This document shows positions 9,501 through 10,274 of a DNA stretch of 64,000 nt, one piece after another. How positions within the stretch are numbered: the stretch's first letter is position 1; each line of letters opens with the position of its first letter. Origin of the DNA: Perna viridis (lineage: Eukaryota); the NCBI GenBank assembly GCA_037379345.1, contig CM074511.1, positions 58,472,862-58,536,861 on the forward strand, in the 5' to 3' direction. A program made the translations under genes and the position numbers. A model generated the notes under the pieces. It worked only from the letters and a program-made list of their open reading frames with translations, was not told where the DNA came from and did no database searches.

Positions 9501-10274
9501 AAAATACCATATCAGGTTCGTCTACAAACGAATAGCGTTTATGCTAAGTTAAGATGGGGTGAGTGTAACTAACCTTGTCTTTATGCCTGGGATTAGCACC
9601 TCTGGATAGCAGTATCCTTTGCATTGTGTAATTCCTTCTCTGACATGCTTTGAGTAGAGGTGTCATTCCGTCTTTCTAAAGATATGCATGTAATGTAAAC
9701 CAAAGTTTTACAAATTTAAAAATATCATACTAGTGAAATAATTATAGTTTATCAATATAGACAACTACACAAGCACCTTTTTTTTTTATATATATAAATG
9801 TTTTTTTTTCTTCAAATAAACATTTTTACCTGCATTTTTGCTAATGATGTCATTTTCTCACAACTATATGCATTTGTCCCAACATGTAATGGATTTGGCC
9901 GTGGTCTCGTCAGTTTTTGATTTCTTGTTTGTAACCTCTTCTTGTTGAATACAGGTATTCTACTACGTTAAAATGCCTACCTTATCACTGTAATTGACGT
10001 TGGCTCCTTGTAGTAGAATGCCTACCTTATCCCTGTACTTGACGTTGGCTCCTTGTAGTAGAATGCCTACCTTATCACTGTAGTTGACGTTGGCTCCTTG
10101 TAGTAGAATGCCTACCTTACCACTGTAGTTGACGTTGGCTCCTTGTAGTAGAATACCTACCTTATCCCTGTAGTTGACGTTGGCTCCTTGTAGTAGGAGC
10201 TTCTCGACATGTCCGGTCTTCCCTCTACAGACCGCAGTAAGAAGCTTCTCGTTCAAGCTCTGAATGTCATGCAT
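520..10274 (-). CDS. PIDD1/DTHD1-like protein: 4x ankyrin, ZU5, ZU5(HFS), UPA, death domain, death domain (multi-exon; 3' end probably outside the window, or stop at 507 if the last donor is unused)
   Basis: Phase-consistent GT-AG exons: 10274-10161, 9675-9574, 9322-9224, 8541-8443, 7957-7866, 7630-7276, 7002-6775, 5102-4798, 4572-4037, 2599-2451, 2142-2015, 1455-1367, 979-813, 644-520 (862 codons). The 99/102-bp phase-0 exons read as ankyrin repeats (DGMTPLLKAC, LGLSCLHYIA, SESTPLHYAA). ZU5-like segments end in VDHFSIYV. A UPA-like segment (LEFHPKREN) follows. Death-domain motifs: LLRQLCKSMGDEWTKVAVLLGLS...MMLWRD...DLVSVLHRIEREDL. Confidence 0.85.
3515..3614. repeat. Degenerate tgtgatataggg minisatellite
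   Basis: Repeated gatatagg motif. Confidence 0.7.
5455..5525. repeat. 34-bp direct repeat x2
   Basis: aatttatacgtcaatgaaaattttcaact occurs twice. Confidence 0.85.
8614..8697. repeat. 28-bp tandem repeat x3
   Basis: ctttgacattttccatggcattgtaacc-like units. Confidence 0.85.
9972..10196 (-). repeat. 45-bp tandem repeat x5 spanning the exon/intron junction of the first ankyrin exon
   Basis: Units start at 9972, 10017, 10062, 10107 and 10152; each encodes about VGILLQGANVNYSDK and carries AAG|GTAGG. Confidence 0.95.

Follow-up and report, generated by a model that had tools for sequence, protein, structure and literature searches.

Minisatellites that repeat a splice donor are known from mammalian genes. 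In IVS7 of human F7, a 37-bp VNTR occurs in 5 to 9 copies, and the most upstream donor alone is reported to be used (PMC1557585, Borensztajn et al. 2006); according to the same source, the F7 pseudo-sites fail to compete even if they are strengthened (PMC1557585). That paper cites LMNB2 (100-bp unit) and PDGF intron 4 (81-bp unit) as cases in which only the first repeated donor is active, and IFI6 (6-16/G1P3) intron 2 and the 31-bp VNTR of CBS intron 13 as cases in which the first and the next two donors are used (Turri 1995, Yang 2000, and Lievers 2001, as cited there). The title of Yang 2000 adds that one substitution in the second repeat of CBS limits alternative splicing. Tandem repeats at exon-intron borders are reported to alter splicing in human paralogues (PMC2812944, De Grassi and Ciccarelli), and effects of repeat length on splicing in general are the subject of a further paper, in whose passages we found no array with the anatomy reported below (PMC10078293). 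A conflicting rule comes from HeLa cells, in which the intron-proximal of two strong identical globin donors is reported to be chosen ~100% of the time at separations of at least 45 nt (PMC3413131, Hodson et al.), the distal donor being active if the proximal one is weak (PMC3413131). Titles and abstract openings yielded no bivalve case of a donor-reiterating minisatellite, an absence that weighs little, most subscription papers lying outside the search.

Here we describe such an array in the mussel Perna viridis. The sequence analyzed, hereafter called the window, is a stretch of 64,000 nucleotides (assembly GCA_037379345.1, contig CM074511.1, positions 58,472,862 to 58,536,861), and the array was read from this one assembly and one haplotype. 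TRF delimits a minisatellite at positions 9972 to 10196, with a period of 45, 5.0 copies, 95% matches, and 0% indels. On the minus strand, each 45-bp unit joins the final 36 nt of the first coding exon to the first 9 nt of the intron, which makes it 80% exonic. The five units are all distinct and differ by substitutions only, at 4 variable columns, with a mean of 2.1 differences (4.7%); the variants are nested among copies 1 to 5, with column 30 reading G, T, T, G, T and column 42 reading T, C, C, C, C. The window contains 5 matches to a 17-nt core of the unit, all of them within the array, against 0.05 expected, and none of 100 shuffles reaches 5. The array is real and unique within the window.

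Each unit carries a donor, and the last exonic base before AAG|GT lies, on the minus strand, at 10161, 10116, 10071, 10026, and 9981. Donor 1 (10153 to 10163) reads AAG|GTAGGT, has a U1 pairing energy of -12.2 kcal/mol, the strongest in the gene, and gives the join between ankyrin repeats 1 and 2 (ANK1 and ANK2) that resembles the one in orthologues. The other four read AAG|GTAGGC: donor 2 (10108 to 10118; -9.2 kcal/mol) would add 15 aa, donor 3 (10063 to 10073) 30 aa, donor 4 (10018 to 10028) 45 aa, and donor 5 (9973 to 9983), the closest to the acceptor, 60 aa. The acceptor, TTTAG| with its first exon base at 9675, is common to all five, and every join to 9675 is in phase 0 and leaves the frame open, with 0 to 4 extra 15-aa units (0, 15, 30, 45, or 60 residues). 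The frame that starts from the ATG at 10274 stays open across the array and meets a stop directly past its end. TRF and inspection of the frame and joins thus bear out the first-pass annotation, which had described five in-frame 45-bp units with five phase-0 donors, only the first of them GTAGGT.

The array has the three structural traits of a donor-reiterating minisatellite. It is a tandem repeat with a unit in the range of ~10 to 100 bp (5 x 45 bp, 95% matches); by homology, its first unit lies across a true exon/intron border, the 10161/9675 join matching orthologue proteins gap-free; and every later unit presents a donor consensus ahead of one acceptor (four AAG|GTAGGC sites at -9.2 kcal/mol). 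As in F7, LMNB2, and PDGF, the first unit straddles the exon/intron border and the donor is repeated before a single acceptor. Unlike the F7 repeat, in which 4 of 37 bases are exonic, the mussel unit is 45 bp long, a multiple of 3, and 80% exonic; it also departs from all three of these cases in that its first donor differs from the rest at +6, its host is a bivalve, and it is known here from the genomic sequence of one haplotype. With IFI6 and CBS the array shares the repetition of donors, and the CBS substitution resembles the mussel +6 difference, whereas the mussel unit is larger, contains 12 codons of a folded ankyrin repeat, and sets the donors at the 45-nt intron-proximal threshold. The array belongs to a known kind of accident, and its first donor is probably the one mainly used.

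How much of this arrangement calls for an explanation can be judged against chance. A unit length divisible by 3 is, arithmetically, a 1-in-3 event. Only 5 of the 135 single-base changes in the unit create a stop, and a frame would remain open after 5 changes with a probability of 0.83. With four minisatellites and 13 donors in the 9.8 kb of the gene, the chance that at least one minisatellite starts across a donor is ~0.14. The array itself is beyond chance, but its in-frame, stop-free "design" is near what chance would give.

The host gene is intact: in the donor-1 model, 14 coding exons on the minus strand, running from 10274 to 507, encode an uninterrupted protein of 859 aa. The first coding exon (10161 to 10292; ANK1) has an acceptor before 10292 and its ATG at 10274, and its length is 132 nt if donor 1 is used but 312 nt if donor 5 is. 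It is probably internal because it has this acceptor and because candidate donors lie upstream. These candidates, TAG|GTAAGT after 10698 and GGG|GTAAGT after 11027 (minus strand), are strong and could end a noncoding first exon that would be joined to the acceptor at 10292. Coding exon 2 (9574 to 9675), which begins at the shared acceptor, encodes ANK2; exons 3 (9224 to 9322) and 4 (8443 to 8541) encode ankyrin repeats 3 and 4, and exon 5 (7866 to 7957) encodes a capping repeat and linker. Exons 6 (7276 to 7630), 7 (6775 to 6981), and 8 (4798 to 5102) appear to encode a ZU5-like region, judging from the fold match of an orthologue (Pfam ZU5 gives no hit on exon 6), and exon 9 (4037 to 4572) matches Pfam UPA_2 with an E value of 0.0064, under the curated cut-off, and would form a UPA-like domain. 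The death domain is encoded by exons 10 (2451 to 2599) and 11 (2015 to 2142), which together span 2015 to 2599, and exons 12 (1367 to 1455), 13 (813 to 979), and 14 (507 to 644, with the stop) encode a helical C-terminal region (507 to 1455) common to orthologues. A shorter model, terminated by an apparent stop in exon 11, was discarded: orthologues show a donor there and three further exons.

Several smaller features of the gene deserve mention. A second AG lies four bases into exon 2 (9671 to 9675, minus strand) and would be an out-of-frame alternative acceptor. Past the death domain, the region at 507 to 1455 (minus strand) forms a second helical region, and three Death stretches score in P0053, the Tegillarca orthologue, so members of the family may have death-like domains in tandem. 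Three further minisatellites of 2 to 3 copies are wholly intronic, at 8614 to 8697 (28 bp), 5455 to 5525 (34 bp), and 3517 to 3608 (33 bp), in introns 3, 7, and 9, and they show that short tandem duplication is locally frequent. A degenerate minisatellite of seven 39-bp copies lies at 11437 to 11715, ~1.1 kb upstream of the first coding exon.

The 859-aa product shares 72.7% identity with the Mytilus trossulus protein P0002 (860 columns, 4 gap positions), 70.5% with M. coruscus P0001, and 42 to 43% with three scallop proteins. Among 106 profile hits at E ≤ 1e-20, the best 25 are members of the host family, with coverage of 52 to 100%, and the rest match the ankyrin part only; full-length relatives found in this search are all from molluscs. 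We used the 21 mollusc-named proteins of this set, from 19 species, and excluded 4 unnamed ones; the underlying protein set is clustered and incomplete. Two gene copies were seen in Tegillarca and Pinctada only, a count among the 21 named proteins that may miss paralogues. A quick 22-row tree joins the window protein to the two Mytilus proteins as their sister (support 100), and its groups track the species tree, suggesting that the window comes from a mytilid other than those two Mytilus species. From these comparisons, the host is a conserved, mostly single-copy mollusc gene. The first-pass annotation had proposed that the array diversifies a putative sensor domain; this idea finds no support in a conserved, mostly single-copy gene whose tree follows that of the species, and the many fast-diverging paralogues per genome that mark immune-sensor families are not seen among the 21 mollusc proteins from 19 species.

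Pfam scans of 7 orthologues found ankyrin repeats in all of them and a Death domain above the cut-off in 5, just below it in 1, and absent from 1; ZU5 matched none of the 7. Vertebrate ankyrin-1 hits cover just 14 to 20% of the query. Canonical ankyrins (ANK1/2/3) have about 24 N-terminal ankyrin repeats, and the host has four repeat exons and a cap exon. The best Foldseek match of the scallop orthologue model is the ankyrin-B ZU5-ZU5-UPA-DD tandem 4D8O (E 3.4e-13, 13% identity); this AlphaFold2 model was built from a 5-row alignment and is of low confidence, with a mean pLDDT of 47 and a TM-score to the query of 0.18. The host may resemble ankyrin-B and ankyrin-G (PDB 4D8O, 6M3Q, and 6M3P) in the order of N-terminal ankyrin repeats, a tentatively predicted ZZUD-like fold, and a death domain, and differs from them in its four repeats plus cap, the lack of a Pfam ZU5 match, and an extra helical, possibly death-like C-terminal region. 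It represents an uncharacterized mollusc orthologue group and not a canonical ankyrin, and we found no paper on it by title or abstract opening. The architecture suggests that the protein most likely serves as an adaptor or scaffold, in which the ankyrin repeats would bind a partner and the death domain would couple it onward.

We next consider which donors are used. U1 duplexes were scored for 17 donors against the U1 5' end: donor 1 reaches -12.2 kcal/mol, copies 2 to 5 reach -9.2 kcal/mol, and the gene's 12 other donors range from -12.1 to -4.3 kcal/mol. Donors 2 to 5 pair better with U1 than 9 of these 12, and 2 of the 12 also have C at +6, so the repeated sites are of working strength. 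Predicted RNA structure gives no consistent order of accessibility, donor 1 being the most accessible in one of three settings and donor 5 in another. Exonic enhancers, if there are any, would be repeated too, because 80% of the unit is exonic.

Comparison with orthologues speaks to the ancestral join and not to present use in Perna viridis. With donor 1, ANK1 and ANK2 are 23 aa apart; among the 19 orthologues in which this spacing is measurable (2 of 21 lack ANK1), 17, from bivalves to limpet, have 21 to 23 aa, the outliers being Saccostrea cucullata (29) and Solemya (31). A spacing of at least 38 aa, as one extra unit would give, occurs in none of the 19. Alignment scores against the two Mytilus proteins drop with every added unit, and those against four scallop proteins drop overall. 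Copies 2 to 5 alter near-fixed residues: an Arg present in 18 of 19 orthologues is Ser in copies 2, 3, and 5, and an Asn/Asp present in all 19 is Lys in copy 4. By hand arithmetic (4/5 x 4/5 x 2/5), the pattern of residues kept in copy 1 has a chance probability of ~0.26, and conservation of copy 1 does not discriminate between donors, because every isoform retains this copy. Three of the 5 changes among copies are nonsynonymous, near the 98 of 135 expected without selection, and nothing in copies 2 to 5 points to coding constraint. Searching proteins with the exon-1-plus-array frame gave 0 hits among 1 candidate, but the search covered proteins of 56 to 179 aa only and is uninformative on spliced forms; no protein from the host species surfaced in the protein searches.

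The extra residues were earlier viewed as half-ankyrin units. An ankyrin repeat is a 33-residue helix-turn-helix with a TPLH-type first helix, and the 15-aa unit comprises the second half of helix 2 plus the loop. An addition of 15 or 30 residues cannot form a new repeat, because the unit is without the first ankyrin helix; none of the 19 orthologues carries such an insert, and Pfam Ank passes on a single stretch (residues 20 to 44) of the exon-1-plus-array frame. The added residues would instead bulge as a loop from the ANK1-ANK2 hairpin. Weaker Pfam matches of the array frame, to VacA2, DUF7461, and NdhS, were all under the cut-off and were taken as noise. Single-sequence AlphaFold2 folded the unspliced exon-1-plus-array frame into an all-strand structure (best model pLDDT 59.8, the other four 35 to 44), which had no PDB match at E ≤ 0.001. 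We rejected this fold as evidence, as AlphaFold2 reportedly predicts unrealistic beta-solenoids when repeats are near-perfect (PMC11795689).

We favor, with a probability of about two in three, a reading in which the array is a nearly neutral donor-reiterating minisatellite with donor 1 dominant, a tolerated by-product of slippage. Slippage or unequal crossover would have duplicated 45 bp spanning the junction of the first coding exon with its intron, giving rise to the anatomy observed, and later rounds would have grown the array to five copies. The spliceosome would define a 132-nt internal exon from the acceptor at 10292 and commit mainly to the first and strongest donor, at 10161; copies 2 to 5 would leave with the intron, and the normal ankyrin/ZU5-ZU5-UPA-like/death-domain protein of 859 aa would result. 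Leakage to donors 2 to 5, being in frame, would produce, rather than a null, a minor and probably impaired isoform whose ANK1-ANK2 hairpin carries 15 to 60 additional residues, and the array would persist as nearly neutral. The T at +6, found in donor 1 only, would maintain the hierarchy of donors. Copy 4 combines the ancestral Arg codon with C at +6. An ancestral C is favored, because a single C-to-T change in copy 1 then suffices, whereas an ancestral T needs a T-to-C change and a conversion of copy 4; by this parsimony argument, a weak one, donor 1 may have gained strength once the array had expanded.

Graded use of the donors, as in IFI6 and CBS, is an unlikely alternative, in which donor 1 and the downstream donors would all be used substantially and yield isoforms with 0 to 4 units, array length shifting the ladder. 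All five donors are in frame and of working strength, as this alternative supposes, and IFI6 and CBS are reported to employ their first three repeated donors (PMC1557585). Human IFI6 has three splice variants of 130 to 138 aa (PMC10119460), lengths that would be consistent with in-frame use of repeated donors. Small additions to the junction hairpin are also tolerated in orthologue models: 10 of 19 have +1, and Saccostrea cucullata has +6 compared with S. echinata. However, donor 1 is stronger by 3 kcal/mol, an insert of at least 15 residues is found here in 0 of 19 orthologues, and copies 2 to 5 show no coding constraint. A fuller form of the same idea, which we regard as doubtful, is a working ladder in which donors 2 to 5 take a substantial share, array length sets linkers of +15 to +60 aa, and a later C-to-T change at +6 of donor 1 drew splicing back toward the ancestral join; such a share is argued because the donors are exactly 45 nt apart and the units are 80% exonic. 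Of the in-frame ladder proposed by the first-pass annotation, the mechanism thus survives as possible, with all five donors in frame, donors 2 to 5 of working strength, and IFI6 and CBS as precedents, but the diversifying role attached to it lacks support. The precedents for first-donor use are, for their part, all mammalian.

The array spacing of 45 nt falls exactly at the HeLa threshold at and beyond which, for two strong identical donors, the intron-proximal one takes ~100% of use (PMC3413131). If this rule applied, U1 would bind several copies, 9981 would be chosen, and a fixed 60-aa insert would loop from the ANK1-ANK2 hairpin; the units are 80% exonic, in frame, and stop-free, and donor 5 is the most accessible in one of three folding settings. 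We consider this outcome improbable: the array sites are not identical, and distal donors are active when the proximal one is weak (PMC3413131); LMNB2 and PDGF, with 100-bp and 81-bp units, still use the first donor only (PMC1557585); and, in an otherwise intact gene, 60 additional residues would disrupt a spacing that 17 of 19 orthologues retain. An assembly artefact, that is, the expansion of a single exon end by read error or mis-joining, could be raised on the ground that a single assembly was examined, but it is very unlikely for five copies that all differ by substitutions only (0% indels) and share nested variants, a pattern that fits a history of duplication. Every unit has AAG|GT, and in human paralogues border tandem repeats are reported to have given rise to new introns (PMC2812944), so that AG|GT might act as both donor and acceptor of a new mini-intron between copies. 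Such an intron gain is scarcely credible: all 26 AGs of the array are without a pyrimidine tract, and in the 18 nt before NAG the array has pyrimidine fractions of 0.28 to 0.56 and T fractions of 0.11 to 0.33, compared with 0.61 to 0.89 and 0.39 to 0.72 at the gene's 14 acceptors.

Two orthologues show irregularities of their own. In M. coruscus P0001 (residues ~94 to 138), the ANK3 exon ends in 12 residues that appear again 33 residues on, and the intervening stretch begins with Val-Ser; this is the only internal exact repeat within the first 260 residues among the 21 named orthologues. On the protein sequence, it probably reflects an independent duplication of an exon end and its donor in the orthologous gene that a gene predictor read through, because a Val-Ser start is expected of a read-through donor. 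In P0062 from Saccostrea cucullata, the six residues by which the ANK1-ANK2 junction exceeds that of S. echinata may stem from an alternative donor or acceptor or from an annotation slip.

The significance of the array depends on which donors are used. If donor 1 alone is used, the array is one more donor-reiterating minisatellite, of little consequence except as a trap for gene prediction, in which an annotator could add 60 false residues. If donors 2 to 5 are used, it would offer a natural, nonmammalian test of conflicting 5' splice site rules at the disputed spacing (PMC1557585 versus PMC3413131) and a case in which exon-end duplication became protein variation within a folded repeat domain. 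Were the ladder true, the array and the M. coruscus duplication would together provide an invertebrate test of "first donor by scanning" versus "intron-proximal donor" and would catch in the act one way in which ankyrin domains acquire or resist insertions.

Elsewhere, Rfam gave 0 matches across the window. A single open frame of 585 aa at 18873 to 20630 (minus strand), with BTB, BACK, and Kelch repeats, is an intronless KLHL-type gene. On the plus strand, long open frames at 22328 to 24061, 24839 to 26461, 26537 to 26908, and 30985 to 35580 (577, 540, 123, and 1531 aa) contain ankyrin repeats, and another at 36785 to 40012 (1075 aa) has no good Pfam match; these long plus-strand frames might be giant exons of a single large ankyrin-repeat gene.
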